A stretch of 64,000 nt of DNA from an uncultured Alphaproteobacteria bacterium (GTDB lineage: Bacteria; Bacteroidota; Ignavibacteria; OLB7): NCBI GenBank assembly GCA_964462535.1, contig CAYWXV010000001.1, forward strand, positions 165,380 to 229,379, given 5' to 3'. The notes under the pieces are model-generated. The model made no database searches. It was not told the origin of the DNA and saw nothing but the letters and a program-made list of their open reading frames with translations. The first letter of the stretch is position 1. Each line of letters starts with the position of its first letter. The translations under genes were made by a program, and so were the position numbers. Of this stretch, positions 2,379 through 60,489 are shown one piece after another.

Positions 2379-2429
2379 TGGCAGAGGGTAGTCGAGTGAG
2401 GTTGGACAAAATCGCTCGAAGATACCACG

Positions 2430-3458
2430 ATGGGCTGTTGCAGGGTCAGTTGCGTATCTTCGCACCCTCCTAATTCACGAGCTGATACGGTTTCGGCTCC
2501 CTGGCCACGTCTCGATATCCACATTCGTTTGCCGGAACTGATGACGACCTCTGAATTGAACGATGAGATCACCGCCTACGTCCACAATCGCGTGGACGAG
2601 AATGAGTATCGGTTGAAGGCACAGCACGCTGAGAACGAGTGCGCTGACTGCGGCGTGCAATTCGAGGCTGAGGTGGAACGTCGCCTCCAGAGTAGCGTTG
2701 ATGCGGATAAGGGCACGCGTGCTCAGCTGCCTCACGCAGTAGGGGACGGACAGCCTTCCGCCGATTCGGGTGGCCGTGGCCCGTCGTCGAACGGTGTGGA
2801 TCAACCAACGCACGGCCGAACCTGGATAGCTCGATTCGAATCCGATTGGATGTCGTCCGGCGGTGTCGTCATTGCGTTAGCGGCCATCGCCGGTTCACTC
2901 TGGGTACTGGGAGTGTTCACTCCATCAAAAGAGGCGGTCTTGCCTGGACAGGAGTTGGTGGAGGGCGAGGGTGTCACGAAACCCGTGCTGGCGTCGCCGA
3001 TCAACGTGCTGAACCAGACGACCAAGAACCTCCAGGCCGTCAAGAGGGGGGAATTGTCAGTTGAGCATGCAGAGGAAGATCCGGTCGCACTTCGGGAATA
3101 CTTCATGGAAGAGGGGGTAGGCTACGGAACCGATATTCCGAAGGCCAGCCTGCCATTGTCGGGTGGCTTTGTCACCGCACACCTGGACAAGGGGAAGGAG
3201 CGGAAGTTCGCCCACTGGGTGTACACTCGGGAAGATGAACGCATCGTGGTCTTTGCACTTCCGGCCGCGGTATTAGCCGAAGGAACGTTGTTCTATCTGA
3301 CGCCCGACGCTCTGGCCCGCCTCGATTCCGGCGAACGACTTTGGGAGGATTTCGGGGACGGTGGCACCTTGTGTGCGCTTCGGAAGGGTGATGTCGTCTA
3401 CGTTGTTTCGTCAACGCTCGACATGAGTGACCTTCGCTCGTCATACCCCGGGCTTTGA
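2430..3458 (+). CDS. Hypothetical membrane-anchored protein with one predicted TM helix (VVIALAAIAGSLWVLGVF). The true start may be the internal Met near 2541.
   Basis: Long ORF in the coding orientation of its neighbours with GC3-rich codon usage. I recognise no domain. Confidence 0.35.
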   Translation: MGCCRVSCVSSHPPNSRADTVSAPWPRLDIHIRLPELMTTSELNDEITAYVHNRVDENEYRLKAQHAENECADCGVQFEAEVERRLQSSVDADKGTRAQLPHAVGDGQPSADSGGRGPSSNGVDQPTHGRTWIARFESDWMSSGGVVIALAAIAGSLWVLGVFTPSKEAVLPGQELVEGEGVTKPVLASPINVLNQTTKNLQAVKRGELSVEHAEEDPVALREYFMEEGVGYGTDIPKASLPLSGGFVTAHLDKGKERKFAHWVYTREDERIVVFALPAAVLAEGTLFYLTPDALARLDSGERLWEDFGDGGTLCALRKGDVVYVVSSTLDMSDLRSSYPGL

Positions 3459-3470
3459 CACGAACATATC

Positions 3471-4142
3471 ATGACTATGAACTCGATTACCAATTCGCTC
3501 ATTCTACTGCTGGCAGCTGTATCTGCATCACTTGTCTCATGTACCGGGCAGGGCGAGTCGCGCTCCGGTGCCAGCAACACTGTACAGACGGCTACCCCTG
3601 ACAAGCCGTCGACTCCCCCGGCTGCAGCGGAAACCCCAACAGAGGCGCCCGCAAATCCCGACGAGGATCGACGGGGACCAGGCGTGTATACTCTGGCATC
3701 TGTAGACAACGGAACGGCGGCGCCTGGTCAACCGGCGCCCAATTTTTCGTGGAAGGGGAGCGATGGGCGGACGCGATCGCTTGCTGATTACAAGGGGCGA
3801 GTCGTCTTGATCAATTTCTGGGGGACGTGGTGCCCACCGTGCCGGCGGGAGCTTCCCGACATCGTGAGTCTCCGGGAGGAGTACAAGTCCAAGGGATTTG
3901 AAGTCATTGGCATCTGTCTTGAACGATCAGACGATCCCGTGTCTGTCGTCACCGAATTTGCGTCGGCGAACGGTTTGATGTATCCGCTCCTGATTGGCAA
4001 TGAGTACATCGCTTCAGCGTACGGTGGTATTCAGGCAGTCCCGACGACGTTCGTGGTCGACAAGTCAGGGATCGTACGCGAGAGCCTTGTTGGAATGCAG
4101 TCCGCATCGGCCTTCAAGGGGGCCGTCGATCGCGCGATGTAA
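3471..4142 (+). CDS. TlpA/ResA-like thiol:disulfide oxidoreductase, a thioredoxin-fold lipoprotein.
   Basis: Signal peptide plus lipobox (LLLLAAVSASLVSC). WGTWCPPCRRELPDI is the CxxC thioredoxin motif. Pro/Thr-rich linker. Confidence 0.8.
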   Translation: MTMNSITNSLILLLAAVSASLVSCTGQGESRSGASNTVQTATPDKPSTPPAAAETPTEAPANPDEDRRGPGVYTLASVDNGTAAPGQPAPNFSWKGSDGRTRSLADYKGRVVLINFWGTWCPPCRRELPDIVSLREEYKSKGFEVIGICLERSDDPVSVVTEFASANGLMYPLLIGNEYIASAYGGIQAVPTTFVVDKSGIVRESLVGMQSASAFKGAVDRAM

Positions 4143-4153
4143 TCGGGTATGAT

Positions 4154-4903
4154 GTGAAGCCGATGCCGATTAGCCGGTCCCAGGCCACTCTCATCAGAAG
4201 CCTGCACGATCGGAAGGGGCGCCAACGACATGGCGCATATATCGCTGAAGGGGACCGTGCGGTCGCAGAGATCGCTCGGTCGGCCGCCCGTCCCGAACTG
4301 GTATTTGCAATACCCGAAGCCGTGCTGCGTGCGGAGGCAATGCTGCCCGGCGTTCCCATTGCCGTCGTCGGTGATCGGCATCACGGTCTGTTCGCGACAG
4401 AGAATTCTCAGGGAATAGGCGTCGTAGTGGAACTTCCGCACGTCACTCCCGATCTATCGGCCCTGCCGCGCCATCAGCCGCTCGTCCACCTCGAATCAAT
4501 TTCCGATCCTGGCAATCTCGGGACGATCATTCGTACGGCTGACTGGTTTGGTCACGAAGCGATTTCGCTGGGGAGGGGGAGTGCGGATCCGTTCAACCCG
4601 AAGGGAGTCCGCGCAAGCATGGGTGGAATCTTTCGACTCCCGGTCGTTGTCGGTACCACACTCGATGAACTTCTTGCGACTCGGCGTCCATTGTTCGCGC
4701 TCGATCTGCGTGGCGTGGATCTCCGGGAGTCACTTCTGCCGGTCGACGGCATCTACGTCGTCGGTTCCGAGGCACATGGCCTATCCGACGATACCCGTTC
4801 GATGAGCACTCTTCTTTCGATTCAAGGAGGGGGAGGTGGGGATAGTCTGAACGCGGCAATGGCCGCGGCTATTCTGATGTACGAGCTCTCTTGTCGGCGT
4901 TGA
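4154..4903 (+). CDS. SpoU/TrmH-family RNA 2'-O-methyltransferase (RlmB-like).
   Basis: Motifs ESISDPGNLGTIIRTADWFG, IYVVGSEAHGLS and LNAAMAAAILMYEL are typical of the SPOUT TrmH family. Confidence 0.8.
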   Translation: MKPMPISRSQATLIRSLHDRKGRQRHGAYIAEGDRAVAEIARSAARPELVFAIPEAVLRAEAMLPGVPIAVVGDRHHGLFATENSQGIGVVVELPHVTPDLSALPRHQPLVHLESISDPGNLGTIIRTADWFGHEAISLGRGSADPFNPKGVRASMGGIFRLPVVVGTTLDELLATRRPLFALDLRGVDLRESLLPVDGIYVVGSEAHGLSDDTRSMSTLLSIQGGGGGDSLNAAMAAAILMYELSCRR

Positions 4904-8177: not shown

Positions 8178-9518
8178 ATGCATTTCGCTCGAGCAATAGA
8201 GGATTCGCTCCACGGACCCGCGCTCAGGGATCGGCTGTCCGATCTTCTGGACGAAGCACGTTCGCGTACATTCGAGGTGATCGAGCCTCTGGCGGCTGAC
8301 GATCTGTTCCAGCAACATGACCGGCTGATGAGTCCCATCATTTGGGACGTTGGTCACATTGGAAACTTCGAGGAGCTCTGGGGAGTTCGCCCCTTTCACG
8401 ACAACGTGCGTCCGGAATACGACGCGATGTACGATGCGATGAAAGTCCCGCGTGCCATACGCGACAAGTTGCCGCTACCGGCTCTGTCGATCGTGATGGA
8501 GTATCTCTCGACCGTTCGAGGTCGTGTAAGCGAATACCTTCGGCGTGCCGATCTTGATAGCTCGGACCCGTTGGTCCACGACGGATATGTTTGGCAGATG
8601 ATCCTCCAGCACGAGTACCAGCACAACGAGACCATCCTGCAGACACTTCAACTGAAAGGGGGCGAGCCCTACAGCCCAGTTCGGCGCCGCCCGCTACCAA
8701 AGGGGAATGGTGCAGTCACTGGAATGACACGCGTACCGGCAGGAGAGTTCCTCATGGGGACAGACGACCGCAGCGCGGCGTACGACAATGAGCGCGACAG
8801 GCACGCGGTGTACGTGCCGGAGTTCCTCATCGACGTTTCCCCCGTTTCGAATGGCGACTACTTGAAGTTCGTCGAGGCGGGTGGGTACGAGCGCCAGGAG
8901 TTCTGGGACCCGGCTGGTTGGGAGTTTATAACGGGACAAGGAATCCACGCCCCAAAGCACTGGAACCAATCGTTGGACGGAACGTGGACGACTCGCTCCA
9001 TGAATCAGTCGGAACCCCTCAACGAAAGACGCCCGGTTTGCCATGTGTGCTGGTACGAGGCCGATGCCTTTGCACGGTACGTGGGCAAGCGACTTCCCAC
9101 CGAGACGGAGTGGGAGAAGGCGGCCGCCTGGAACCCAATCACGGGAGATTCGCTGGCATATCCTTGGGGCAACGATCCACCAAGCCGCGATCGGGCCAAT
9201 CTCGATCAACGTGGGTGGATGGCCGCCGAGATTGGTGCCTATCCTGCCGGGGTCAGTCCGGTTGGGTGTCACCAGATGATCGGCGATGTGTGGGAGTGGA
9301 CGGCGAGTGATTTTCTTCCCTATCCAGGATTCGCAGCCTTCCCGTACGCGGAGTACTCCGAGGTCTTCTTTGGACCCGAGTACAAGGTCCTGCGAGGCGG
9401 GTCGTGGGCGACTCGACCGGGAGCTATTCGCAACACGTTCCGGAACTGGGACTACCCCATTCGCCGTCAGATCTTTGCTGGCTTTCGCTGTGCCATGGAT
9501 CCCGACACCGGCGATTGA
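8178..9518 (+). CDS. egtB: Ergothioneine biosynthesis sulfoxide synthase EgtB (DinB_2 domain plus FGE-sulfatase domain).
   Basis: N-terminal DinB_2 (SPIIWDVGHIGNFEELW). C-terminal FGE-like region (GEFLMGTDD...NERDRHAVYVPEFLIDVSPVSNGDYLKFV...LRGGSW). Confidence 0.85.
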   Translation: MHFARAIEDSLHGPALRDRLSDLLDEARSRTFEVIEPLAADDLFQQHDRLMSPIIWDVGHIGNFEELWGVRPFHDNVRPEYDAMYDAMKVPRAIRDKLPLPALSIVMEYLSTVRGRVSEYLRRADLDSSDPLVHDGYVWQMILQHEYQHNETILQTLQLKGGEPYSPVRRRPLPKGNGAVTGMTRVPAGEFLMGTDDRSAAYDNERDRHAVYVPEFLIDVSPVSNGDYLKFVEAGGYERQEFWDPAGWEFITGQGIHAPKHWNQSLDGTWTTRSMNQSEPLNERRPVCHVCWYEADAFARYVGKRLPTETEWEKAAAWNPITGDSLAYPWGNDPPSRDRANLDQRGWMAAEIGAYPAGVSPVGCHQMIGDVWEWTASDFLPYPGFAAFPYAEYSEVFFGPEYKVLRGGSWATRPGAIRNTFRNWDYPIRRQIFAGFRCAMDPDTGD

Positions 9519-9549
9519 TAGCGCGCTGAACCAAGACTTCGGAGACCCA

Positions 9550-10536
9550 ATGTCCGCACCTCAATTGTCGGTTCGCGACAACGCCTCGAGCAGCCGCGAA
9601 AACGAACTCATTGCAGATATCCGAACTGGTCTGCTCTGCCGACCCAAAGAGCTGTCCCCCAAGTACTTCTACGACGAACGGGGATCCCGCCTCTTTGAGC
9701 GGATCTGCGAGCTCCCAGAGTACTATCAGACGCGAACCGAACGGGGAATCATTCTGGCGAATAGTGCCGCACTCGTCGACTTGGTTGGGAGCGGGACGGT
9801 TGTGGAACTTGGAGCGGGTAATGCCTCTAAGAGCAGGCTGTTTCTTGAGGCGGCTCACGCTATCGGGAAGACCGTCGACTTTGTTCCGGTCGATATTAGC
9901 TCCGTGATGTTGGAGCAGACCGCTGTGGAACTCCGCGCACGTTATCCATGGGTTGCGGTTCATCCGGTTGCGGCCGATTTCACGAGGCATATTTCAGTGA
10001 GACCCTCGTCCAATCCAAGGCTCATTCTCTTCCTGGGAGGGACTATCGGGAACTTTGGTGAGGCGGAGGGAGCCGAGCTGCTCGCGCGAATCGCGTCGGC
10101 GATGAACACGTCCGATCGCTTCGTTCTTGGAATTGATCTCGTTAAGGATCCTGCTATCCTCCACGCGGCCTACAACGACGCTGACGGAGTAACGGCCGAC
10201 TTTAACCTCAATGTTCTTCGCGTCCTGAATCGAGAGGCTGGTGCTGCATTCAACCTCACCAAATTCCGCCACTACGCATTCTACAACCCGCACGCGGAGC
10301 AGATCGAGATGCACCTCGCGAGCGTGGAATCCCAGACCGTTCCCATCTCCGCCCTCAACGCCTCCGTGGAGTTTGAACGGGGGGAGACGATCCGTACAGA
10401 GATTTCTCGAAAGTTCTCCAGGGGAAGTGTCGAACGGCTGCTGGAGCTGGGAGGTATGCAACTCGAGCAATTTCTGGTTGATGACCACGAGTTGTTCGCC
10501 CTTTGCGTGGCCCGCCGAATCAACGGGGTCAACTGA
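9550..10536 (+). CDS. egtD: L-histidine N-alpha-methyltransferase EgtD.
   Basis: PKYFYDERGSRLFERICELPEYYQTRTE...VELGAGNASKSRLFLEA...LGGTIGNF is the TIGR03438-like pattern. A GGAG box sits 5 nt upstream of the ATG at 9550. The ORF-track start at 9286 is an upstream in-frame extension. Confidence 0.85.
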   Translation: MSAPQLSVRDNASSSRENELIADIRTGLLCRPKELSPKYFYDERGSRLFERICELPEYYQTRTERGIILANSAALVDLVGSGTVVELGAGNASKSRLFLEAAHAIGKTVDFVPVDISSVMLEQTAVELRARYPWVAVHPVAADFTRHISVRPSSNPRLILFLGGTIGNFGEAEGAELLARIASAMNTSDRFVLGIDLVKDPAILHAAYNDADGVTADFNLNVLRVLNREAGAAFNLTKFRHYAFYNPHAEQIEMHLASVESQTVPISALNASVEFERGETIRTEISRKFSRGSVERLLELGGMQLEQFLVDDHELFALCVARRINGVN

Positions 10537-10537
10537 T

Positions 10538-11749
10538 ATGCCACCCGCAATACTCCCACCTCGCTCATCGTTCGTCCACGCGATCGTTGCCGATGAACTT
10601 TTCGCCCTCTCCCCGAGCGACAGAGTGGGATTGGAGGTTGAGGTCTTCATCGTTTCCGACAGCGGTCACAGACATTTCCCCGAAGACGAGCGCGTGAATT
10701 TCTACAGGGCCCTTGCACGCGAGTTTGATGGCGAGTTTTCGTTTGGAGCGGAGGGGGAGCCGGTCGTCGCGCTGCGGAATGGTGGAAAGATTACGTTCGA
10801 GCCCGCGGGGCAGCTGGAGTACAGCGGTCCGCCATTCGACAGTTCGCTCGATGCGTCGGTGGATGCGGTCGAGTTTGTGACGCGACTGCAACGTGTAGCC
10901 CGATCGGTGCGAATGGATGTCGTGATGAAGGGCTTCGACGATCGTTTTGAAGAACCACCTCTGGTGGTGGCCAAATCGCGGTACGTCGCAATGGATAACT
11001 ACTTCGGGCGTATCGGTGACTACGGACGGATGATGATGCGCCGAACGTGCGCGCTGCAGGTCAACCTCGACTTCGGTGGCTTGGGGACCAACCAGGAGCG
11101 CTGGCGGCTGGCGAACATGATAGCCCCCGCGCTGAACGCGCTGTTCGCGAACTCTCCTGCTACTCGAAACGAACGAGCGTATCGGAGCTTCCGGTACGAG
11201 ATTTGGAAACATGCTGATCCGACACGAGCCGGGCGCCTCTTTGATCGTCCGGACCTGGACCCGGTCGCCGACTATGTTCGCTTCGCACTTGACGCAAGGG
11301 TCATGTTCGTGCGACTCGATGACGGCAGGCACGTTGTTCCCACGCCCGAACTGACGTTCAGACGATGGATGTCGGTTGGTTGGGAGGGGCGTCTCCCGAC
11401 ATCGTCCGACTGGCGCCGCCACCTCACCACCCTGTTTCCCGATGTCCGGCCACGCGGCTGGATGGAGGTTCGATCGATCGATGCGCAGCCGGTAGAGATG
11501 ATTGGTGTTGTCGCGTCTGTTGTGGCCGCTGCGCTGTACGATGAAGCGTGCAGGCGTGACCTACTTCGGATGCTGGAGAATCGTGACCGGGTCGCGATTG
11601 ACGATGGGGAGCACGATGGGTGCTTGGTCTCGGATCTGCAGGCCGGGATCGAGATCGCCCGCGTCGTCGCCGATCGTCTACCACTCCCGGCCTGGCGAGA
11701 CCAGCTCGATCGGCATGTGGCGATGCTCCTCTCAAACGTGCGAGCGTAG
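10538..11749 (+). CDS. egtA: GCS2-family glutamate--cysteine ligase (EgtA-like gamma-glutamylcysteine synthetase).
   Basis: VGLEVEVFIV...GQLEYSGPP...RRTCALQVNLDF are GCS2 / carboxylate-amine ligase motifs. The ATG is coupled to the egtD stop (TGATATG). Confidence 0.7.
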   Translation: MPPAILPPRSSFVHAIVADELFALSPSDRVGLEVEVFIVSDSGHRHFPEDERVNFYRALAREFDGEFSFGAEGEPVVALRNGGKITFEPAGQLEYSGPPFDSSLDASVDAVEFVTRLQRVARSVRMDVVMKGFDDRFEEPPLVVAKSRYVAMDNYFGRIGDYGRMMMRRTCALQVNLDFGGLGTNQERWRLANMIAPALNALFANSPATRNERAYRSFRYEIWKHADPTRAGRLFDRPDLDPVADYVRFALDARVMFVRLDDGRHVVPTPELTFRRWMSVGWEGRLPTSSDWRRHLTTLFPDVRPRGWMEVRSIDAQPVEMIGVVASVVAAALYDEACRRDLLRMLENRDRVAIDDGEHDGCLVSDLQAGIEIARVVADRLPLPAWRDQLDRHVAMLLSNVRA

Positions 11750-49574: not shown

Positions 49575-50966
49575 GTGATAGCCATGCTCCGGTTACTCGT
49601 TCTCGTTTTCATTCTTCCATTCTGCGTCGTCTTTCCGTCATCTGCTCAACCCCTGGGTGCCGATGCCGCGATCGTCGTCAACATTGATGGAGAGATCGAC
49701 CTCTCGACAGCGGCCTATGTGCGCAGAGCCATTGACGAGGCAACCTCACGAAATGCCCGACTGGTTCTCTTCAGGATCAATACGTTTGGGGGCCGCGTCG
49801 ATGCCGCGACACAGATTCGGGACGCAATTTTCGAGTGCCCGCTGCCAACCATCGCATTCGTCGATGATAGAGCCATCAGTGCCGGAGCCCTCATCGCCCT
49901 CTCGTGCCAGAAGGTTGGGATGACCGCAGGCGCCACGATAGGGGCCGTGACGCCTGTCAATAGCGAAGGGGAGAAGGCGCCCGAGAAAATCGTCAGCTAT
50001 GTGCGTGGGGAAATGCGAGCCATCGCAGAGAGGCGGGGGCGCAACCCCAGGATAGCGGAAGCAATGGTCGACGAGACGGTGCAGCTATCCGACACAACGT
50101 TGAAATCGAGTGGCAAACTTCTCACGCTGACTACGAAGGAAGCTCTTGCGGTCGGTTACTGTGACGTCGAGGCCAACGATGCGAGAGGGGTACTTGCCCG
50201 CCTTGGGTACGCTGATGTTCCCACACAGTCGGTTGAGATGTCATGGGCTGAGTACGCGGTTCACTTCCTGACGAGTCCGTTTGTGGCCTCGTTGCTGATT
50301 ATCATCGGGCTCGGTGGGATCTTTTACACGATCAAGACGGGGCACATGGGTCTCGCCACGACCGCCGGTGTCCTCGCAATGGTTCTGTTCTTCGGCGCCC
50401 AGTATATCGCAGATCTTGCAACGGCTCTCGAGGTAGGGCTCTTCATCGTGGGCGTTGTGTTGTTGATGCTCGAGATCTTCGTCATCCCTGGGTTCGGTGT
50501 TGCTGGAGTTTCGGGCATCCTCATGATTGTGGCCGGTCTGTTCCTGTCGCTCGTTGGGTCGTTTGACAACATCACGTTCGAATCCTTGACACAACCGCTT
50601 TATACGCTGGCCGGTGCGTTCGTCGGACTGGCCGTGATACTCTACCTGATGTTCAGGTACCTTCCGGATACAGGGGCGTTTCGAAAGTTCGTTCTTGACG
50701 AGTCGGAAACTGCGCAGAAAGGATATCGCTCTCAGCCCGACTATGCCGAGTTGATCGGTGCGAACGGTACGGCACTGACTACGCTTAGACCTGCAGGCGT
50801 CGTCGACTTGGATGGGGACCGATACGACGTTGTCACCGGTGGCGAGTTCATTACGGCAGGCGAGCCCGTCGTCGTTGTTCATGTGGAGGGTCGAAAGATT
50901 GTCGTGCAGCGCTTCGAGGACGTTGAGACTCATGGAAATCAGTCATCAACAGACATGAACGCTTGA
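49575..50966 (+). CDS. NfeD-family membrane-bound ClpP-class serine protease with a C-terminal OB-fold.
   Basis: Signal peptide. VVNIDGEIDLSTAAYVRRAIDEA...LVLFRINTFGGRVDAATQIRDAIF...FVDDRAISAGALIAL. Central TM segments. C-terminal NfeD beta-barrel (VDLDGDRYDVVTGGEFITAGEPVVVVHVEG). Confidence 0.75.
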   Translation: MIAMLRLLVLVFILPFCVVFPSSAQPLGADAAIVVNIDGEIDLSTAAYVRRAIDEATSRNARLVLFRINTFGGRVDAATQIRDAIFECPLPTIAFVDDRAISAGALIALSCQKVGMTAGATIGAVTPVNSEGEKAPEKIVSYVRGEMRAIAERRGRNPRIAEAMVDETVQLSDTTLKSSGKLLTLTTKEALAVGYCDVEANDARGVLARLGYADVPTQSVEMSWAEYAVHFLTSPFVASLLIIIGLGGIFYTIKTGHMGLATTAGVLAMVLFFGAQYIADLATALEVGLFIVGVVLLMLEIFVIPGFGVAGVSGILMIVAGLFLSLVGSFDNITFESLTQPLYTLAGAFVGLAVILYLMFRYLPDTGAFRKFVLDESETAQKGYRSQPDYAELIGANGTALTTLRPAGVVDLDGDRYDVVTGGEFITAGEPVVVVHVEGRKIVVQRFEDVETHGNQSSTDMNA

Positions 50967-52600
50967 GATCGGCATCGTTCAGTATTTGCTTGCTCGTAGT
51001 GGTCGCCGTCAGTAGCTCGATCGGGCAGACCCCGGAGCCTCCGACCGGCTCTTTTGTGGTTGATTCAGTCTCTACAAAGGCCCTGGATCTTTTCGAAGGG
51101 GAGACGCCGTGGCCGATTGTCGGTCCGGTCATGGATTTCTTTCACGCCCGAACTCGAGGCGGTATCCTTCAGGAAGAGATCTGGATCAGGCCGGGCGATA
51201 CGATAACGCCACACGACATCAACGAGATCCAAAACAGGCTTCGCGGGTTGGGAGCATTCGCGGAAATCCGGACATCTTTCGACACCACCAGCCAGGTGCA
51301 CGAAGATTTGCCGGAAGGAACACTGTTGGTACGAACACGCGATACGTGGTCAATACTGCTGTATGCGACGTATGCCCGCTCCCAGGATGAAACTACCTAC
51401 GCGTTATCCCTCACCGACTACAACCTGCTTGGAACCGTCAACAGGCTCGGAATTGGAACAGACTACTCATCTCTGGGAACGCGCGGGCACCGGTACTACG
51501 GGACGTACAGGAACGGGAATCTCTTCGGAACATTTCATTCGCTCGATGCATCTGCTGTTGTTGGCGACCACGAGACGTCGTTTTTCGGACAGATTGCACT
51601 CCCCGTTTTTACCGATCGCTTTCGAAATGCCTACGCGATCGCAGCCTCGTCGTTTGATGGAGCTCGTGTAGCCTTCCCGCATGGCTTTCGAGGAACGAGG
51701 AGCATAGACGTGCCGGTAACGACTACGGACGGCAGTGCCTGGTTCAGTCGCACCAATGGAGCGCGAGGTGACGTCTTCCGTTGGTCGTTGAGTACTCAGT
51801 TTGATCGCACGCGTCGAGATACGTTGCCGGAATTCGCACGTGCATTCGAGAATACGGTCGGTCTTTTTGCAGGAATTGCATCGCACCGTCGGCGTTACGT
51901 GTACGTCCGGGATGCTGATTTCAATGGTGAGCGACAGATCCCGATTGGGGCGTATGGGAGTGTGTCGGTGGGTAAGATCTCGCCACACAACAACGGCAAG
52001 GAGAACCTGATCTATATCGGATTCGATGCCGGGAAGTCGATCATCTCACGCGACATCTACGCAAATGCCGATGTCGCCGCAGGCACTGGGTTTCGAGATC
52101 GGTCAACAGCGTTTACAACGCTCCGATGGGCTCTGTCGGGTGCCTGGATGACCCACCCAGGCGCGCTGGCGGTCCGAGTTGACCAGTCAACCGTGTGGAA
52201 CTGGCCAAGGTACCTGGCTGCGTTCGAGAGCGGTGGTCTCCTGCGTGGATACGATCGTGAGAATATTTCCTCTGACAACAAGCTTGTCACCGCCTTGGAG
52301 TATAGACTGAATCCGATTCTCAGGATTCTTGCGTTTGACCTTGGTGCGGTTGCGTTTGCGGAAACGGGTGGGTACTGGAGTCAAGGGGAAAGGTTCGGTG
52401 CGACTCGTTTTCATAGCGCAGCCGGAATAGGGTTGCGAGTCGGCTACGCGGGAAGCGACTTCGGCAAGGGACTCTTGCGCGTTGACCTGGCATGGAACTT
52501 TGACGAGCAGCGCTGGTCGAAAATTCTGATTGGAACGGAAGAGGCGTTTGACGTGTTTGGGACGCTTGCATTCCGTCCTCCTGGTCCATACACCTATTAG
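50963..52600 (+). CDS. Omp85/BamA-TamA-like outer-membrane beta-barrel protein (putative).
   Basis: Signal peptide. POTRA-like stretch (TITPHDINEIQNRLRGLGAFAEI). The C-terminal surface-antigen-like pattern (AAGIGLRVGYAGSDFGKGLLRVDLAW) is typical of the Omp85 C-terminus. Starts at an ATGA overlap with nfeD. Confidence 0.4.
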   Translation: MRSASFSICLLVVVAVSSSIGQTPEPPTGSFVVDSVSTKALDLFEGETPWPIVGPVMDFFHARTRGGILQEEIWIRPGDTITPHDINEIQNRLRGLGAFAEIRTSFDTTSQVHEDLPEGTLLVRTRDTWSILLYATYARSQDETTYALSLTDYNLLGTVNRLGIGTDYSSLGTRGHRYYGTYRNGNLFGTFHSLDASAVVGDHETSFFGQIALPVFTDRFRNAYAIAASSFDGARVAFPHGFRGTRSIDVPVTTTDGSAWFSRTNGARGDVFRWSLSTQFDRTRRDTLPEFARAFENTVGLFAGIASHRRRYVYVRDADFNGERQIPIGAYGSVSVGKISPHNNGKENLIYIGFDAGKSIISRDIYANADVAAGTGFRDRSTAFTTLRWALSGAWMTHPGALAVRVDQSTVWNWPRYLAAFESGGLLRGYDRENISSDNKLVTALEYRLNPILRILAFDLGAVAFAETGGYWSQGERFGATRFHSAAGIGLRVGYAGSDFGKGLLRVDLAWNFDEQRWSKILIGTEEAFDVFGTLAFRPPGPYTY

Positions 52601-52655: not shown

Positions 52656-53787
52656 ATGTTCGAAAACGCTTCAACCAGACTCCAGAAACACGTCGAGCGC
52701 ATCGATGAACTACGGAGGTGTCTTTGACCTCGATCGCAAAGAACGAGAGATAGATGAACTCGAGTCGCGGACTCAGGAGAATGATTTTTGGAATGACAAT
52801 GTTGCCGCACAGGGAGTTATGCGCGAGATCGCCACGCGGCGCGAGTGGGTTGATGCGTGGCAGGCCGCCCGGCGCAGAGCTGATGATGCCTCCGCACTGA
52901 TAGATCTGGCTCGTGAAGCTCAGGATGAGTCGATGGAAACGGACATCGAGGCCGAATTGACGGAAGTCGACAACCTCGTTGCGGACCTGGAGTTCCGGAA
53001 CATGCTCTCGGACCCTGACGACGTACGTGACGCCATTCTCAAGGTACAGGCCGGGGCAGGGGGGACGGAGGCGCAGGACTGGGCAGAGATGCTCCTCCGC
53101 ATGTACATGCGATGGGCCGAGCGGAAGGGATATTCCATCGCCCTTCTTGACGAGCAGGAAGGAGATCAGGCCGGGATCAAATCCGCATCCATTGAGATTG
53201 CCGGAGCCTATGCCTTTGGCAATCTCAAGTCCGAGAACGGCGTGCACCGCCTGGTTCGCATTTCACCGTACGACTCCAATGCGAGACGTCATACGTCGTT
53301 CGCTTCGATTTTCGTCTATCCGGTCGTCGACGATGATGTCAACATCGAGGTGAATCCTGCAGACGTTGAGTTGGAAACATTTCGGTCGGGGGGGAAGGGG
53401 GGACAGAACGTGAACAAGGTGGAGACCGCGGTCAGGCTCCGTTACACGTTCGTTTCACCCCGCGGAGATAGCCATCAGATTATCGTGAGCTGCCAGGAGG
53501 AGCGCTCTCAGCTCCAGAACAGGGAGCGGGCAATGAAGATGCTCAAGTCGGAGATCTACGAAGTCCTCCGGAGAGAAGAGGCGGAACGGAAGGCGGCGAT
53601 CGAAGGATCAAAGAAGAAGATCGAGTGGGGAAGCCAGGTCCGGAACTACGTCTTTCAGCCCTACACACTGGTCAAGGACACCCGAACGGGGCACGAGACC
53701 GGCGATGTGCAGCGGGTGATGGATGGTGAGATTGATGACTTCATCAAGTCGTACCTGATGGAGTTTGCACAAGCGGACGCGACGTAG
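52656..53787 (+). CDS. prfB: Peptide chain release factor 2 with a programmed +1 ribosomal frameshift (join 52656..52724, 52726..53787).
   Basis: Frame 0 reads MFENASTRLQKHVERIDELRRCL then TGA. Site GGAGGTGT CTT TGA C, with an internal SD (GGAGG 52714-52718) 3 nt before the CTT. The +1 frame continues DLDRKEREIDELE...SPF-like...GGQNVNKVETAVRL (GGQ motif). Confidence 0.9.
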
Positions 53788-53806
53788 CCGCCTCGCAATT
53801 GCGTAC

Positions 53807-55342
53807 TCACGGTCGCTTCCTGCGAAAAAGATCGGCGATCATTCTGACGGCGCGTCGGAGGAGTGAAAGGAGGGCGCGCAATGCGGAGCCACCCTTCGAC
53901 TGAGTGCTCCGCAGCATCATCTTAAGGTCGTGGCGATCTACGCGGGACACCTGATTCATTGGACTTGGCCCGTCCATTCCCTGACCGGTGACATCCCCCA
54001 GCAGTTGTTCCAATCGATTCTTGATCTCCTCCAACTGGCGGAGTTGCTCAGGGTCACCCCCCTGGTCAAGGAGCATTCTCACGTGTTCCAGTAGTAGGGC
54101 CGCCTCTCGCAACGTATCGGCGTCAATTCCGTCCCGAAAGTCGGCCTCAACAGCGGACATCAGATCGTGGAGTTCGTCAATCTCGCTCTGCCGCAACGTG
54201 AAGATTGCGTCGGACGAAATATCGTCGACCTGTACGAAGACGTTGGAGAGTTCCTCGATCTCCCTGCCATAGCGGGCACCGATCTTCCCAATCAGTTCCG
54301 CGCGCAATCGATTCGTCCGTTCGACCAATCCAGAGATCTGCGAGCGGAGCAATCCCGAACGGGAGTCCCGCCCTGTCAGATTAGCCTGCCTCCGAAGTTC
54401 CTCCAACTCCTTCTCCATCGCCGCAAGTGTCCGCGACTCAGGCGAAGATCCTCGTGTCGCGAGTTCCGCCAGAAGGCGGTCATCGGCAAAGACCTCCGCG
54501 TTGCCAATTTTGATAGCGTTGATCTTGATGTTCTCGCCAAGTGCATCGGAAATAGCGCCAATGTCCAGATGACTGGCACCATCCGTCACCATCAGAATCT
54601 CGGCACCTGATAGGCTCGACACGCTTCGGATGTCCTCCGCAGCCTGCAGAATCGCCTTCTGCATCACTGTTCCGTTCCCGAGCCGTGTGAGCCTCATCGT
54701 ATAGTGAATCAGACGGCGGAGAGATGCATCGTCTGTAGCCACTTGGAGGGGTCCCAAGTCGGTGTCGAACGTCCGCATGAAGACCTGTCCGAGTTCTCTA
54801 AGATTCCTTTTCAGAAAGACATAGACCACCGCCTTTGCCATCTGGAATCGGTGGTGAGACGTCATTGACGTTGACGTGTCCAGGAGAAGATAGACCTTCT
54901 GCTTAAAGATGTCCGGCGAGTACTCGCTTCCCGAGCTTCCAAACGGAACTATGACGGGCGTGACCGGGATGTTGATCCAAAGCGATCGCTGAGAGAGGCG
55001 ACGCATGAAGACTTCTTCGGGGAGCAGATACTGGTGGGGAAGGATTCTCTTCAGGTCATTGAGGGAGCGCATCAAGGCGGCCTCGTACTCCTCACCCTGA
55101 TGTACGAAACGGTTGGGTAGCCAGTCGTACGAACGGGGTACGGATTCTTCTGCAAAGACAGTCGATACGGCGAGTGCGGGGGCCAGGTGCATCGCTAGCT
55201 CACTCTCCGGATCCTCGAGCACTCGGGCGATTTCAAATACCGCGGAGAACTCGGGAGGCAGGTGTTCCTCGAGGTCACGGAGGTATCCGAACTCCTCCAT
55301 GTGCTCAAAGAATGTGCTGTGTGTCAGAGCACGGTGTGCCAT
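53807..55342 (-). CDS. von Willebrand factor A (VWA) domain protein with N- and C-terminal helical/coiled-coil regions; partner of the upstream AAA+ ATPase.
   Basis: MIDAS motif in VYLLLDTSTSMTS (DxSxS), with downstream ...VTDGAS. The C-terminal 200 aa are rich in heptad-like L/E/R repeats. Confidence 0.7.
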   Translation of the reverse strand: MAHRALTHSTFFEHMEEFGYLRDLEEHLPPEFSAVFEIARVLEDPESELAMHLAPALAVSTVFAEESVPRSYDWLPNRFVHQGEEYEAALMRSLNDLKRILPHQYLLPEEVFMRRLSQRSLWINIPVTPVIVPFGSSGSEYSPDIFKQKVYLLLDTSTSMTSHHRFQMAKAVVYVFLKRNLRELGQVFMRTFDTDLGPLQVATDDASLRRLIHYTMRLTRLGNGTVMQKAILQAAEDIRSVSSLSGAEILMVTDGASHLDIGAISDALGENIKINAIKIGNAEVFADDRLLAELATRGSSPESRTLAAMEKELEELRRQANLTGRDSRSGLLRSQISGLVERTNRLRAELIGKIGARYGREIEELSNVFVQVDDISSDAIFTLRQSEIDELHDLMSAVEADFRDGIDADTLREAALLLEHVRMLLDQGGDPEQLRQLEEIKNRLEQLLGDVTGQGMDGPSPMNQVSRVDRHDLKMMLRSTQSKGGSALRALLSLLRRAVRMIADLFRRKRP

Positions 55343-55360
55343 AGGGGAAGCTGACCCGGA

Positions 55361-56737
55361 CTATTGGAGCGGTGTCTCGACGGATATACCCGCCGTGAAG
55401 AGGACGTGCAGGTCATGCTTCAACCGATTGCGGAGATCTCGTATCTCGTCGCTCGCGGGTTGAAAGCGCTCCAGATACTCGGACATCAATCGCCGATTGT
55501 GATCTGCCTTGACGTCTCCAATTCCCAACACGTCCCGCGCCCATTCGCGCAGCGTTCGCTTGATCGGAGTCGACTCGACTGCAGTAATCGCAGACTGAAG
55601 AAGGTCCGGCTCCCGCTTGATGCGATCGATCAACGCCTTGAATTCCAGCAGCGTACGGAGCTGCTCCAACGCGTTACCGGCACCGAACTGATGACCGAGC
55701 GCCGTCGTGGCCTTGTGCCACAAGGCACGCTCATCGTCAATGCCGACGGTTGTGAACAGAACGTAGAGCTTGTCGACGTCGGACGTCGTTACGGTTGTCC
55801 GTCCGTGCATGAAGGCAATGGCCCTGAGCAGATCGAACGCCTTTACCTGTCTGCGGGGGGAGATGTAGTAATCCCGTTGCGGCGTGCCGTTTCGAGCGGC
55901 AGCAAGTGCGCGGTTCCTCAACTCCTCGTAGTACCGGATCACGAGGTTGGTGTAGTAGAGTATCTCGTGCGGAACATCGATCTGGATCAGCGCGCTTGTA
56001 CCATTACAGATCCGCGTTACCTCCCGGAGCGTCGAATAGGCAATCGTCTTTGGCGGGTCGGCCGCCCCGCCGCCATGCTGCAGGTATTGGCGTGCGATGC
56101 GATACTGGTCATACGGGTCCTTGTCGGGGAAGACGACGGATTGGTAGGTAAATCGATCAAGGAGGGCCTCGGTAATCTCGGTAACGCGTAGATAGTTCGT
56201 TGCGGCGACAACCGTATGGATCGAGGCTCGCTGCCGCTGCACACCCAGGACAAGTTCGCGTTCATTGAGGAGGGTCAGGAGCGCACGGAGGGTGAAGTCA
56301 TTTGCGTCGAAGATTTCGTCAATGAAACCGAACTCACTTTCGACAAGGGAGCCTGACGTGTTGTGAATGATCAGCCCCTTCTTCAGCTCCTCAATGTCCA
56401 GGCCACCGAAGTAGGTGTCGGGTTGCTGTTCCTTGGAGGCCTGCACCTTGAAGTACCGGGCCCCCTTGAACATGCGGAAGATCTGTTCGGTCATCAGCGA
56501 CTTGCCGACGCCCGTCCGCGATTGGATCAGCGCATGTTCGCCGGTCAGAATTGCGCAGAAGATCTGTTCAACGACATCCGTTCGATTGATCATTCGTGCG
56601 TTGACGAATTCCAGCGCATCCTGCAGATCCAGAATGATCTGCTGAATGTCTAGTCGCTCGGGATGTTCACGAAGCTGTTCCGTCATGAGCATTTCCGTTT
56701 GGATTCGGATCGAACCATCCTCGGATGATCCCACCAC
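55361..56737 (-). CDS. MoxR-family AAA+ ATPase (the start may be the internal Met at about 56692 or 56686).
   Basis: Walker [10 protein letters not shown]. Walker [13 protein letters not shown]. Sensor/arginine-finger region VVAATNYL...LLDRF. Sits immediately upstream of the VWA partner. The 5' end overlaps the mnmA 3' end. Confidence 0.7.
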
Positions 56738-57803
56738 CGACTACCTCGTCACCGTCGTAAAGAACCACACTTTGGCCCCTCGTAATTGCTCGACGAGGCT
56801 CGTCAAAGAGAACATGAAGGAGCCCGTCGTCCGATATGTGGCATGTTGCCGCGGCCCCCGGATCCTTATAGCGAATCCGTGCCGTAAGTCGCATGGGTTC
56901 AGGTAGCCCGTCAAGGCCAATCAGATTCACGTGATCGGCATGCAGGCCTGCGTGGAGCAATTCGTCGGACGTTCCGACGTGGACGCGATTCGCGGACGCG
57001 TCGATATCTATCACGTACAACGGTTCGGGATTGGCAACCCCAAGCCCACGGCGCTGACCAACCGTATAGAAGGGATATCCGTCATGCTGGCCAATCACTT
57101 CACCGCCTCGGACGATCTCGCCTCCGCTGACCGCTTGCTCAAGACCAGGTTCTGCATCGCGCAAAAATCGCGTGTAGTCGTTATCGGGAATGAAGCAGAT
57201 CTCGTACGATTCGCGCTTCCCTGCAATCGGCAGATGTCGCTCGCGCGCTAGTTGGCGCGTCTCGCTCTTCTGAAGGTCCCCAAGGGGAAAGAGGGTTCGT
57301 TGCAAATGGGAAGACCGTACTCCCCAAAGCGCATACGACTGATCCTTTGAGGCGTCCACCCCACGGTGTAGTCGAACGCGCGACCCATCTCGGTCCCGGG
57401 TCAGACGCGCATAGTGCCCGGTCGCGACGTAGGCAGCTCCAAGCGCGTCCGCGTGATGAAGCACTTGTGCCCACTTGATCGATCGATTGCAAAGAACACA
57501 GGGGTTGGGAGTATTACCGGTCAGGTATGATTGCACGAAGGGATCGATGATCTCCCGCCTGAAGACATCTGAAAGATCGTACACATAGTGGGGTATTCCC
57601 AGGTGGGCGGCGACGCGGCGCGCGTCCATGACGCCATCCACGGAACAACAGCTCGTGTCTTTGACCTCGTTCCCACCAACGTCCTCGTATCGATACGTCT
57701 TGATCGTAATACCAATGACGTCGTAGCCCTGCTCAACAAGGAGCGCGGCCGCAACGGACGAATCGAGGCCCCCTGACATTCCTATGACAACTCGTTCGTT
57801 CAC
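56667..57803 (-). CDS. mnmA: tRNA-specific 2-thiouridylase MnmA.
   Basis: PP-loop [15 protein letters not shown]. Catalytic Cys motifs (NPCVLCN...). C-terminal domain conserved. Confidence 0.9.
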
Positions 57804-57885
57804 TGGATCATGGTCTCAATAGCTGACGTGCCTTTCGTTCGTCGATGACGTATGGGGTCTTCCATACCGATCGACCAGGGAGTGA

Positions 57886-60489
57886 TTACTCAGCGGCCGT
57901 TGCGGGATGGAGTCGCGTCGTTGAAGATATTCCGGGTCCGGAAGGGGCACTCCTCTGCAGCGCAACGTATCCATTGCTCGTCCACAGTATCGTCTGGTTG
58001 GAGTAGAACTCGTTTAATGGTTGACCACTTGCACCCGAGGTTACGACACTCCGCACAAACGCCGTAGAGTCACCGAAGTCGACAATCTGCCGCATGGTCG
58101 GTCCCACCCGCACATCGTAGGGGCGGGCAAAGTCCCACTCACCATTGTTGATGGTGCCGTTTGCACCACCAACCTCGTAGGGTCCGATGTTGACAATGTT
58201 TCTGAGCTTCTCATTTGATGAGAATGGATGCCTGAATGTCAGCTGGTGGATCGCACCGTAGCTCCACCTGTCGATCGCCCACGTATCGAAACGACGGTGA
58301 AGGGTATCGAGCGCTGCACCCAAGGACCGACGCAAGATATCGTCACGGCGCTCGACCCTGTCAGTCGTCGACACGTCGTCAAACCATCTGCTATCGAGCA
58401 TGACGTGATATCGAAGGGCACGCATTGGATGTAGGGCCAGGAAGACCCAGCGGTCAAATAGCTCGGGTCCCATCTCGTCCCTGTATGTCGCCTGTATCAC
58501 GGTCTGGAGCCATACTGCGGCAATCGCACCCTCCGGACCCCCATCGCGCATACCTGCATCCCAGTTCTTCAAACGAGTCAAAGCGTCGCGCACGGCCGAA
58601 CCCTGTCGGGCACTGTCGGGAAATGCTCGCAATAGATAGCCGATCAGAAAGCGCATGTGTGGGGAGACCACGTCAGCCTGTATTTGCCCGAAGTCGGTCA
58701 CGTTGAATCCGTTCCCTTCCTTCAGCAACTCTCCCAGACGAATGGCGCGTGAGGGATCTTCCCATAGCTCACTAATTGTGTACGATGTCGCATTGGCCAC
58801 CTTGTTGTTGGCCGCTGCGACGTACCCTTCGGGGGGGCTGGTAAGCGAAGGAAGGCGATCCATGGGCACAAGCCCGTGCCAGTCCGATTGCGACTCCCAT
58901 CCCCGCCGCGGGACCGGACTCCACTCTCGTTGTGGAATGGAGGCAGTCGGTACGTAGGCGATCGTGCCTGCCGAGTCGGCGTAGACAACCGATATCCCTG
59001 GAACACCCCCTTTGCGTGCCCCCGTCGTGAACGTCTTCAGGTCGCGTGATTCGTTCAGTTCCTGAAGGGCGGTCAGCTCATTCGTGGGTTGAGCGCCAAC
59101 CCACTGCATGGAAATCACGGTGTCCCTTGAGGTTCCCCATGAAGAAGCGTTCATTCGGTCTTTTCCGATCCAGGGATCCACGTCCGAGATCACGGGGCCA
59201 TGCCGCGTGATGCGCACAACTATCGGAACTGACGCTGAGTCCTTGACATCGATGGTGTCGCGCAGCTGACGCAGGGACTCCCACCGACCGTCTCGCAAGA
59301 CTTTTCGACGATCGGCCGAATCGAGCACCTCGACGAAGAAGTCGGTCTGGTCCGCCATCATTGCTGTGACTCCCCACGCAACGTTATCGTTCCGCCCCGA
59401 GATGACGAACGGTATCCCCGGAAGGGTCACCCCGGCTAGATGCCGCCCACCGTAGGCGACAACTGCCTGATACCATCGACATGGAGCGGAATGAGGAAGA
59501 TGGGGGTCATTGGCGAGCATCGGGCGCCCGCTCTCAGTTCGGTTTCCGGACAAGGCCCACGCGTTAGATCCGATCTGGGGTCCATCCAACCCGATCTCCT
59601 GCCGGTATTCGCGTTCCATGTCCATGATGCGTCCCACGCCTCGAAGGGTGGTGGCGGTGCGCGTGGTATCGATTCCTTGGAGTGAATCTGACACCTCCGG
59701 GGCCCCGTGCCGAATCGAGTCAGTGCGCACGTTGGCGTCCACTCCCTGAAGAAGGGGCTCGGGGCGTTGTCCCCCAGGTACTATTGTGGGGCCGTCGGTC
59801 GGATAATAGGGAAGGATCTCCTGGAAGCGGACTGAGTCGACTCGTGAGGAGATGTCGGCATACACGATATCACTCCACATCGACAGATTCAGTTCCCATC
59901 CGAGCATGCGGACTACCAGAACGGAATGAAGCGGAGTCCATTCATCCGGCTCGTAACCCAGGGCGTCGAACTCTATCGGGAGGCGTCCGTGATGATCGCG
60001 TATACATGCATTCACCCCGCGAGCGTAGGCATCGAGGATCTGGCGCGTCTTTCTGGGCATTTGCGCGAGGATTGCTTCGGCGGTTCTAGTGAATCCGACC
60101 GTCCGCATGAAGGCGTCGAAACCGAGAGCGCGTCGGCCGAATATCTCGGACAGACGTCCCTCCGCAGCTCGCCTGGTGAGGTCCATTTGCCACAATCGAT
60201 CTTGTGCGTGTGCATAGCCCAGCGCGGCCCACGCATCGGCTGAATTCGATGCCGAGATATAGGGGATACCATAGGCATCTCGCACGATGTCGACATCGGC
60301 ATGAAGCCCGATAACGTCGGCGTCTGTTTCTCCGTCAGCAATGAAGGATCGGCCAATGAGTTCAACGCCGAGCCAGGTAAGTGCAAGAATGACGGTTCCG
60401 AAGACTACGATCGTCCCAGTCAGTGAAAAACGACGCATCGGCGAGTGGGAGGGGGGAATGTGCGAGCGACTGCCGCACGCTCCAAGCAA
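57886..60489 (-). CDS. Penicillin-acylase-family (S45 Ntn-hydrolase) protein, of the acyl-homoserine-lactone or beta-lactam acylase type; secreted or membrane-anchored.
   Basis: N-terminal TM/signal. The Ntn nucleophile context IGSNAWALSGNRTESGRPMLANDPHL is the S45 hallmark. 867 aa. Confidence 0.8.
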   Translation of the reverse strand: MLGACGSRSHIPPSHSPMRRFSLTGTIVVFGTVILALTWLGVELIGRSFIADGETDADVIGLHADVDIVRDAYGIPYISASNSADAWAALGYAHAQDRLWQMDLTRRAAEGRLSEIFGRRALGFDAFMRTVGFTRTAEAILAQMPRKTRQILDAYARGVNACIRDHHGRLPIEFDALGYEPDEWTPLHSVLVVRMLGWELNLSMWSDIVYADISSRVDSVRFQEILPYYPTDGPTIVPGGQRPEPLLQGVDANVRTDSIRHGAPEVSDSLQGIDTTRTATTLRGVGRIMDMEREYRQEIGLDGPQIGSNAWALSGNRTESGRPMLANDPHLPHSAPCRWYQAVVAYGGRHLAGVTLPGIPFVISGRNDNVAWGVTAMMADQTDFFVEVLDSADRRKVLRDGRWESLRQLRDTIDVKDSASVPIVVRITRHGPVISDVDPWIGKDRMNASSWGTSRDTVISMQWVGAQPTNELTALQELNESRDLKTFTTGARKGGVPGISVVYADSAGTIAYVPTASIPQREWSPVPRRGWESQSDWHGLVPMDRLPSLTSPPEGYVAAANNKVANATSYTISELWEDPSRAIRLGELLKEGNGFNVTDFGQIQADVVSPHMRFLIGYLLRAFPDSARQGSAVRDALTRLKNWDAGMRDGGPEGAIAAVWLQTVIQATYRDEMGPELFDRWVFLALHPMRALRYHVMLDSRWFDDVSTTDRVERRDDILRRSLGAALDTLHRRFDTWAIDRWSYGAIHQLTFRHPFSSNEKLRNIVNIGPYEVGGANGTINNGEWDFARPYDVRVGPTMRQIVDFGDSTAFVRSVVTSGASGQPLNEFYSNQTILWTSNGYVALQRSAPSGPGISSTTRLHPATAAE

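Follow-up and report, generated by a model that had tools for sequence, protein, structure and literature searches.

Do a MoxR-type AAA+ ATPase and its VWA-domain partner belong together with the tRNA-thiolation gene mnmA that precedes them, or do they form a unit of their own, next to which mnmA just happens to lie? The question is raised by three minus-strand genes in a stretch of 64,000 nucleotides (positions 165,380 to 229,379 of contig CAYWXV010000001.1, assembly GCA_964462535.1), here called the window, from an uncultured bacterium labelled Alphaproteobacteria and placed by GTDB within the Ignavibacteria. An earlier interpretation, referred to as the sequence-only reading, had proposed a three-gene mnmA-ATPase-VWA module. 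The analysis reported here makes it reasonably probable that the conserved unit is instead a housekeeping operon of two genes, encoding a RavA-like MoxR ATPase devoid of the LARA domain and a dedicated VWA adaptor endowed with a MIDAS (an adhesion site that depends on a metal ion), with mnmA as an incidental neighbour.

Gene layout in the window

The three minus-strand open reading frames (ORFs) are found at 56667-57803 (378 aa), 55361-56737 (458 aa, the longest ORF for this gene) and 53807-55342 (511 aa), in a region whose GC content equals that of the rest of the window. The 458 aa originally given for the ATPase are correct for the longest ORF, but a protein of 441 aa, starting from the ATG at 56686 (55361..56686, minus strand), is probably the real product, because the database protein P0001 (441 aa, 100% identical to the window ATPase) and the public gene calls share this length; other upstream starts are an ATG at 56692 and a GTG at 56737. 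Residue positions in the ATPase follow the 441-aa numbering throughout. With this start, the overlap of the ATPase gene with the 3' end of mnmA, rightly noticed in the sequence-only reading, amounts to 20 nt (56667..56686, minus strand), in agreement with public gene calls (L113: mnmA 1908-3020, ATPase 3001-4326), and it reaches 71 nt only with the longest ATPase ORF. Because the genes overlap by 20 nt, co-transcription of the ATPase-VWA pair with mnmA is very probable in the window genome. The VWA gene (53807..55342, minus strand) follows the ATPase gene after a gap of 18 nt; domain matches, motifs and this short gap all agree with the description of a MoxR-type ATPase directly followed by a VWA/MIDAS partner, and the motifs quoted for the two proteins (Walker A GVGKS, Walker B DE, MIDAS DTSTS) are indeed present. 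A promoter and terminator scan of positions 53500-58200, which excludes Bacteroidota-type promoters, returned fewer matches than shuffled sequence.

The upstream gene (56667..57803, minus strand) is a bona fide mnmA, encoding a tRNA 2-thiouridine(34) synthase of the C-type: it scores 408.9 bits with the NCBIfam model NF001138 (cut-off 284) and 326 bits with TIGR00420 (cut-off 237), matches the Pfam tRNA_Me_trans family along with the M and C domains, and features the PP-loop motif SGGLDS at residues 10-15 and the cysteines typical of its class (CC52-53, C102xxC105 and C203). C-type MnmA has been found to bind a [4Fe-4S] cluster in Thermus (PMC7025502). In the public gene calls mnmA begins 8 codons too late (370 aa), which would deprive the protein of the strand before its PP-loop; agreement with the hidden Markov model is better for the GTG at 57803.

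Conservation of the pair and of its neighbourhood

Relatives were searched for in one genome per GTDB species: 181 species contain a relative, and the best 80 loci, mostly from metagenome-assembled genomes (MAGs) of Kapabacteria, Ignavibacteria and the Chlorobi group, were analysed for gene content up to 8 kb from the ATPase. A second set, seeded from the VWA protein, consists of 31 metagenome loci. ORFs at the relatives' loci were defined by a conservation-weighted caller and cross-checked with tblastn.

An upstream mnmA on the same strand was detected in 9 of the 80 loci (L002-L004 and L006-L011), which form a single clade with the window and have an ATPase at least 68% identical to that of the window. 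The distance between mnmA and the ATPase is 37-162 nt in L008-L011 and 1.1-1.9 kb in the other five (L002, L003, L004, L006 and L007); in the first four of these the spacer holds a gene on the opposite strand, in L007 only a short same-strand ORF. Most of the window's clade is syntenic over a block that includes penicillin amidase, mnmA, the ATPase, the VWA gene and prfB. The other 71 species have no mnmA within 8 kb, and their ATPase is still 50-65% identical; similarly, only one of the 31 metagenome loci has mnmA beside the pair, with a tight gap, and this locus (L082) is a close relative of the window. Being found in 9 of 80 species, all from one clade, and with a spacer in five of nine cases, the adjacency is therefore a local inherited synteny of one subclade, and mnmA is an incidental neighbour. 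The proposed three-gene module thus does not hold over the 80 GTDB and the 31 metagenome loci, and synteny gives no support to the idea of a MoxR chaperone linked to tRNA thiolation.

In five of the window's closest relatives (L001-L004 and L006) the ATPase is immediately preceded by an opposite-strand gene of about 300-400 aa, absent from the window, which has no Pfam match and contains a P-loop-like GGKST motif. Where mnmA is retained, this gene (for example L002:6917-8065, minus strand) separates it from the ATPase.

The ATPase and the VWA gene are organised as an operon in most lineages, and are separated in some. The VWA gene immediately follows that of the ATPase in 39 of 80 species, in many cases at a distance of -4 to +15 nt, while in nine species it is found on the same strand 1.3-5.6 kb downstream and in one it is divergent; five loci are too short to be judged. 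Viewed from the other side, the ATPase is the gene immediately upstream in 22 of the 31 VWA-seeded loci, and in nine it is not. The ATPase is 50-75% identical to that of the window in all 80 species. Distant pairs, whose identity to the window proteins is down to 26-39% for the ATPase and 24-32% for the VWA protein, retain the same two-gene layout, an equally central VWA domain and housekeeping neighbours. Among the 1.84 billion representatives of a library clustered at 50% identity, a single full-length one (471 bits) stands for the orthologous group of the ATPase, and a series of full-length relatives of graded identity (30-37%) comes next; altogether, 64 representatives are found at E <=1e-30 and 2072 at E <=1e-10.

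No universal third gene was found in the 80 and 31 loci. The neighbours are lineage-specific, and include the F-ATP synthase operon, a TonB/ExbBD/TPR cluster, a metallophosphoesterase, uvrC/ugd, rpoN/pyrD, dnaN/recF and a PAS histidine kinase. Because conservation is strong and presence is clade-wide, we attribute to the pair a housekeeping role; that it is chromosomal, vertically inherited and housekeeping in Kapabacteria and Ignavibacteria is part of the overall explanation favoured here, and shares its fair probability.

Some of these neighbourhoods deserve a brief description. A cluster formed by TonB/ExbB/ExbD, an outer-membrane protein and a TPR protein of 1000 aa, which has the appearance of a Tol/Ton-type envelope system, recurs beside the pair in two orientations (L014, L021-L023, L039, L044, L059, L060 and L075; L040, L063, L072 and L078; L087, L090, L099 and L101). 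In one clade (L030, at 9354-10553, L047, L053, L054, L057, L068, L077, L080 and L095) the ATPase and the VWA gene are separated by a same-strand gene for a calcineurin-like metallophosphoesterase of about 395 aa (Pfam Metallophos) with a membrane anchor. Six low-GC metagenome contigs (L102, L104, L105, L107, L108 and L109), with ATPases at 33-36% identity, feature a same-strand PAS histidine kinase of about 533 aa upstream of the pair, and in all of them except L105 a small ORF of about 114-135 aa also precedes it. Finally, eleven MAGs (L007, L008, L024, L026, L028, L040, L059, L063, L065, L066 and L075) contain orthologues 50-73% identical under discordant taxon labels, namely Alphaproteobacteria, Armatimonadota, Planctomycetota, Chromatiales, Hyphomicrobiales and Patescibacteria, which look like cases of mis-assignment or mis-binning.

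The ATPase

The ATPase matches, over the respective cut-offs, the Pfam families bpMoxR (PF20030, 101 bits), AAA_5 (52 bits) and AAA_lid_8 (30 bits). In an alignment of 14 diverse homologues the mean column identity is 64% and more than 100 residues are invariant, including one uninterrupted segment of 14 residues. The Walker A motif GVGKS (residues 59-63; 56498..56512, minus strand) has G59, K62 and S63 invariant, and the Walker B pair D123-E124 (56315..56320, minus strand), located by motif search, lies inside an invariant stretch of 10 residues; the same holds for the sensor-1 residue N164, for R178 and for SPRR 276-279 in the sensor-2 region, which are as invariant as the Walker motifs. All the features expected of a MoxR-family member, that is AAA+ motifs, matches to the Pfam MoxR models and lid, and pairing with a VWA protein, are present.

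Within the family, the closest solved relatives are those of RavA. The only solved proteins recovered by sequence are E. coli RavA entries (phmmer against the PDB, best E 1.9e-18), and BLASTP aligns the ATPase with E. coli RavA at 27% identity across residues 32-304, corresponding to the complete AAA+ module and lid. The AlphaFold2 (AF2) model of the ATPase (m53d985900d46; pLDDT 71, pTM 0.75) was used for a Foldseek search, which ranked RavA 4upb and 3nbx at the top (E 1e-13 to 1e-12), followed by the MRP-type MoxR 2r44 and then by MCM proteins. Among solved structures, RavA is thus ahead of the MRP-type 2r44 by both sequence and fold.

With the RavA equivalog model of NCBIfam (PRK13531) the ATPase reaches 72.6 bits, where 681 are required, and the match covers residues 47-196 only; no match to the LARA (PF20265) or RavA C-terminal (PF12592) domains is found in the ATPase at E <=0.1, while E. 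coli RavA, run in the same library, scores 135.5 and 82.7 bits, respectively. Beyond the lid, the AF2 model features helices alone: the place of the triple-helical and LARA region of RavA is taken by an all-helical C-terminal domain (residues 317-431; 55394..55738, minus strand; pLDDT about 80-90). As judged from its sequence, the ATPase is a RavA-like MoxR AAA+ protein, but not RavA proper. The sequence-only reading had left open whether the pair would fall within a characterised subfamily: it lies outside, given the score of 72.6 against 681 bits, the absence of LARA and a partner with no significant similarity to ViaA. Both proteins had also been described as larger than canonical, which is true in comparison with MRP- and CbbQ-type MoxR systems, but not with RavA (498 aa) and ViaA (483 aa).

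Two other subfamilies were considered and discarded. Assignment to MRP was rejected on the basis of an AAA_3 (PF07726) score of 21.9 bits, below the cut-off of 27, and of the lack of a DUF58-type neighbour at the loci. The CGN subfamily (CbbQ/GvpN/NorQ) was also rejected: its members have about 270-300 aa, compared to 441 in the window ATPase, there is no CbbQ_C match, and no cbb, nor or gvp genes are seen in the window or at the loci.

The VWA partner

The VWA protein matches the Pfam families VWA_2, VWA_3 and VWA over residues 148-300, and its AF2 model is confident (pLDDT 81.4, pTM 0.72). Conservation was evaluated on an alignment of 43 homologues, out of 114 full-length ones (about 500 aa) found. 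The core (residues 148-300; 54443..54901, minus strand) matches the VWA fold, and its MIDAS residues D155, S157, S159, T225 and D254, the first three within the DTSTS motif at 155-159, are invariant in all 43 homologues; the protein features, in other words, a VWA fold with a MIDAS of the functional type (DxSxS...T...D). It is preceded by an N-terminal domain (residues 1-147; 54902..55342, minus strand), delimited on the basis of the AF2 model and of conservation, which is helical at residues 3-57 and has two short strands. Two blocks of this domain, 21-40 and 101-120, are conserved, with L28, P29, E37, R40, P108 and F112 invariant.

On the other side of the core, AF2 predicts a helical hairpin (helices 301-323 and 328-357; 54272..54442, minus strand), placed between helix alpha5 of the VWA domain and its last strand (368-372), and a C-terminal helical bundle (residues 385-508; 53819..54190, minus strand). 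Of the long helical or coiled-coil arms attributed to this protein by the sequence-only reading, the helical part is well supported by the long helices of a confident model. By analogy, the hairpin might be the equivalent of the pore-inserting "finger" described for VWA domains of MoxR partners. Charge and hydrophobic moment delineate a cationic amphipathic helix at the C-terminal end (residues about 485-511; 53810..53890, minus strand): in all 43 homologues the last 40 residues have a net charge from +2 to +19 and a high hydrophobic moment, the sequence itself being variable. This helix may constitute a membrane- or polyanion-binding tail, and the conservation of its amphipathic character hints at a role on the cytoplasmic side of the membrane.

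The VWA partner differs in architecture from ViaA, NorD and CbbO. The fold search with the VWA protein gave no structural match beyond the VWA core, and the only result of the sequence search against the PDB was a marginal match to the VWA domain of CLCA1. No VWA_CoxE match is found in the window protein, while some homologues carry precomputed PF05762 matches. Homology to ViaA was tested and rejected, since the BLASTP match (E 0.032) spans 45 residues at the MIDAS strand alone and the VWA domain is central, rather than C-terminal.

A proposed mechanism

Well studied couples offer a model for how the pair may work. In the NorQ/NorD system a hexameric ring binds a single VWA protein, whose MIDAS binds carboxylates of the client and is needed for client activation but dispensable for ring binding; a VWA "finger" has been proposed to enter the pore of the ring and to relay the ATP-driven movement, and this idea has been extended to all MoxR/VWA couples (PMC9976466). 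The inner membrane is where RavA and ViaA act (PMC9489729), and their clients are the respiratory complexes Nuo and Frd (PMC3893208; PMC10585395).

By analogy with NorQ/NorD, CbbQ/CbbO and RavA/ViaA, from which the hexamer, the docking mode, the membrane association and the chaperone role are all borrowed, the most likely function of the pair would be that of a housekeeping MoxR/VWA remodelling chaperone, possibly acting on a membrane-associated client. The pair features all that such a mechanism would require: an AAA+ subunit with complete catalytic motifs, an intact MIDAS, the hairpin as a further protrusion of the VWA domain, and conserved domains on either side. The ATPase would form a hexameric ring, on which a single VWA protein would dock, with a protrusion of the VWA domain, probably the hairpin 301-357, in or near the pore. 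The conserved N-terminal domain of the VWA protein might touch either the ring or the client, and more generally the conserved domains flanking the VWA core could supply ring docking and client specificity. The intact MIDAS (D155, S157, S159, T225 and D254), together with a divalent cation, would grip an acidic side chain of the client, and ATP hydrolysis, passed on through the VWA domain, would result in remodelling of the client, for example by cofactor insertion, assembly or release.

A number of observations weigh against this picture. In 26 of the 80 species the sequence downstream of the ATPase, followed for up to 8 kb, contains no VWA gene, so that in these species the pairing must work in trans, unless the ATPase is able to function by itself. 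Among the neighbours there is no conserved third gene that would indicate a client. The hairpin is the least conserved part of the VWA protein in sequence, the highest conservation being that of the VWA core and of the N-terminal blocks; moreover it is helical, while the finger of NorD is stabilised by a beta-sheet, which makes their equivalence uncertain. The basic tail could bind nucleic acid instead of lipid. Finally, AF2 confidence is low in parts of the AAA+ core of the ATPase (pLDDT <50 at residues 84-117 and elsewhere).

Alternative explanations

Three further explanations were evaluated against the same data. The ATPase and the VWA protein might work with MnmA, for instance by inserting or repairing its [4Fe-4S] cluster, or by controlling in some other way the formation of 2-thiouridine at tRNA position 34 (s2U34). 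The 20-nt overlap, which makes co-transcription likely, would fit this idea, as would the gaps of 37-162 nt in L008-L011 and the tight one in L082; the window MnmA is moreover of the Fe-S-dependent C-type (CC...CxxC...C), MoxR/VWA pairs do insert metal cofactors (PMC9976466), and RavA-ViaA is tied genetically to Isc Fe-S biogenesis (PMC3893208). Adjacency, however, is restricted to 9 of 80 species from one subclade, where the whole block is syntenic, just as shared ancestry alone would give; a gap of 1.1-1.9 kb is present in five of the nine loci, with an opposite-strand gene inside it in L002, L003, L004 and L006, and the pair is equally conserved in the 71 species which have mnmA elsewhere. 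On balance, cooperation with MnmA appears very unlikely. The suggestion, also contained in the sequence-only reading, of an anti-phage module, in which the MoxR-vWA couple of a conflict system would serve as threshold switch for an effector, fares no better. It draws on the best Pfam match, PF20030, described as "MoxR domain in the MoxR-vWA-beta-propeller ternary systems", and on the calcineurin-like metallophosphoesterase found between the two genes in one clade, a domain class listed among the effectors by Kaur et al. 2020 (PMC7159879). The PF20030 match was nevertheless rejected as evidence for a conflict system, because E. coli RavA itself scores higher, at 191 bits, on the same bpMoxR model, whose name therefore marks the RavA clade, and not a conflict system; as to the inserted phosphoesterase, it has N-terminal transmembrane segments and is confined to that clade. 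Neither the third component of a ternary system (VMAP, iSTAND, FtsH-type or beta-propeller) nor a variable effector was found in the 80 and 31 loci, where neighbours are of the housekeeping type. With the models of PADLOC-DB 2.0 no match exceeds the threshold, the ATPase having a sub-threshold one to mad8 (E 0.0048, 14.5 bits) and the VWA protein none; no relatives are present on 2.9 million viral contigs, and the plasmid search returned only distant matches to other AAA ATPases, at <=31% identity, none of them full-length or close. Defence systems are patchy and evolve fast, whereas the pair is very highly conserved and present throughout its clade, and a role in defence is accordingly regarded as highly improbable.

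A somewhat better case can be made for a lineage-specific client in Ignavibacteria and Kapabacteria, namely the F1Fo ATP synthase or another membrane energy-transducing complex, for which the pair would act as assembly or regulatory chaperone, with the cationic amphipathic tail anchoring the VWA protein to the membrane and the hairpin serving as pore finger. Genes of the atp group lie within 8 kb of the ATPase at 21-23 of the 80 loci, in several clades of the ATPase tree, and this adjacency exceeds that of a random locus. Four arrangements are observed, which involve both sub-operons, atpBEFHAG and atpDC: the pair is co-directional with, and directly upstream of, atpZ-I-B-E-F-H-A-G in 12 loci (L014, L020, L023, L028, L035, L038, L039, L041, L043, L044, L060 and L075); it is divergent from the same genes in six (L047, L053, L054, L068, L077 and L080); a divergent atpD-atpC lies immediately upstream in L015 and L045, or about 6 kb off in L046; and atpA-G-D-C or atpD-C are convergent downstream in L026 and L065. 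RavA-ViaA, which acts at the inner membrane and on the complexes Nuo and Frd (PMC3893208, PMC10585395, PMC9489729), and the putative membrane-binding tail of the VWA protein point in the same direction. Yet no atp genes are found in the 64-kb window, in the window's clade or at any of the 31 VWA-seeded loci; the gap between the VWA gene and atpZ, 143-206 nt, leaves room for a promoter of its own, and inversions from one ancestral linkage could yield every arrangement. The TonB/ExbBD/TPR cluster is equally recurrent, which therefore argues for regional synteny rather than for a specific functional link. Specialisation for the ATP synthase is thus considered unlikely, and a housekeeping two-gene chaperone, whose client may be membrane-associated, remains the explanation that we favour.

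It may be added that in E. coli K-12 (L081, NC_000913.3, 3913000-3936000) ravA-viaA is located beside oriC; the atp operon is some 6 kb away, with rsmG and mnmG, the latter coding for the other tRNA U34-modifying enzyme, in between. A position between the atp operon and dnaN-recF is also observed for the pair in one Ignavibacteria clade, either by coincidence or, perhaps, as a very old origin-proximal synteny.

Comparison with known systems

Among known systems, RavA-ViaA is similar to the window pair in being a two-gene operon with the ATPase followed by the VWA protein (498 and 483 aa, compared to 441 and 511 aa here), in providing the best sequence and fold match of the ATPase, and in sharing the bpMoxR and AAA_lid_8 signature, a helical domain after the lid and a partner with intact MIDAS; action at the membrane is possible for both pairs (PMC9489729). 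In contrast, the window ATPase lacks the LARA and RavA C-terminal domains, its partner has a central VWA domain (148-300 plus 368-372) followed by a helical bundle, whereas that of ViaA is C-terminal (320-457), and the host belongs to the Fibrobacteres-Chlorobi-Bacteroidetes (FCB) group, not to the Gammaproteobacteria.

NorQ-NorD and CbbQ-CbbO share with the pair the combination of an AAA+ ring and a single VWA adaptor with a carboxylate-binding MIDAS and an extra protrusion of the VWA domain, features which are predicted here from genes and model. The window ATPase, however, is not of the CGN type, has a C-terminal helical domain and matches AAA_5 in a generic way; the domain order of its partner is different, a helical hairpin takes the place of a beta-stabilised finger, and nor or cbb genes are not nearby.

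The ternary conflict systems described by Kaur, Burroughs, Iyer and Aravind in 2020 (PMC7159879) also contain a MoxR-vWA couple and the PF20030 domain, but the window pair has no third core component or effector, is neither mobile nor patchy, and is found in housekeeping surroundings. Similarly, the Bacteroidota operons combining MRP-type MoxR with Bat and DUF58 proteins resemble the pair in superphylum, in the presence of MoxR and VWA proteins and in the large TPR gene which is often near the pair. They differ from it because AAA_3 is sub-threshold in the window ATPase, DUF58 is missing, and a single cytoplasmic VWA protein is found instead of the membrane proteins BatA and BatB; moreover, the TPR gene near the pair is on the opposite strand, and its linkage is inconsistent. 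Taken as a whole, this is a previously uncharacterised pair, made of a MoxR ATPase, probably of the RavA clade, and its dedicated VWA partner.

Other genes in the window

Next to the VWA gene, on the plus strand, lies prfB (52657-53787), coding for release factor RF2, which features the classic programmed +1 frameshift (site 52722-52728): a short ORF starts with the ATG at 52657 and ends with CTT TGA C, and the main frame corresponds to the 360-aa ORF 52705-53787. An ORF of 545 aa (50963-52600, plus strand), with a signal-peptide-like N-terminus and no Pfam match, is preceded, with an overlap of 4 nt, by an NfeD-type membrane protease gene (49575-50966).

Significance

To our knowledge, MoxR/VWA pairs are abundant, but clients are known for few of them: Rubisco, cNOR, CO dehydrogenase, methanol dehydrogenase and Nuo/Frd. 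An ATP-synthase-type client, if it turned out to be the true one, would represent a class not described for any MoxR/VWA system. The architecture of the partner, with its central VWA domain, helical insertion and basic tail, could be used to probe how general the model of a VWA finger in the AAA+ pore is. The family is strikingly conserved across a whole, little-studied branch of the FCB group, which implies an important constitutive client, and identification of this client would enlarge the small set of understood MoxR chaperones.

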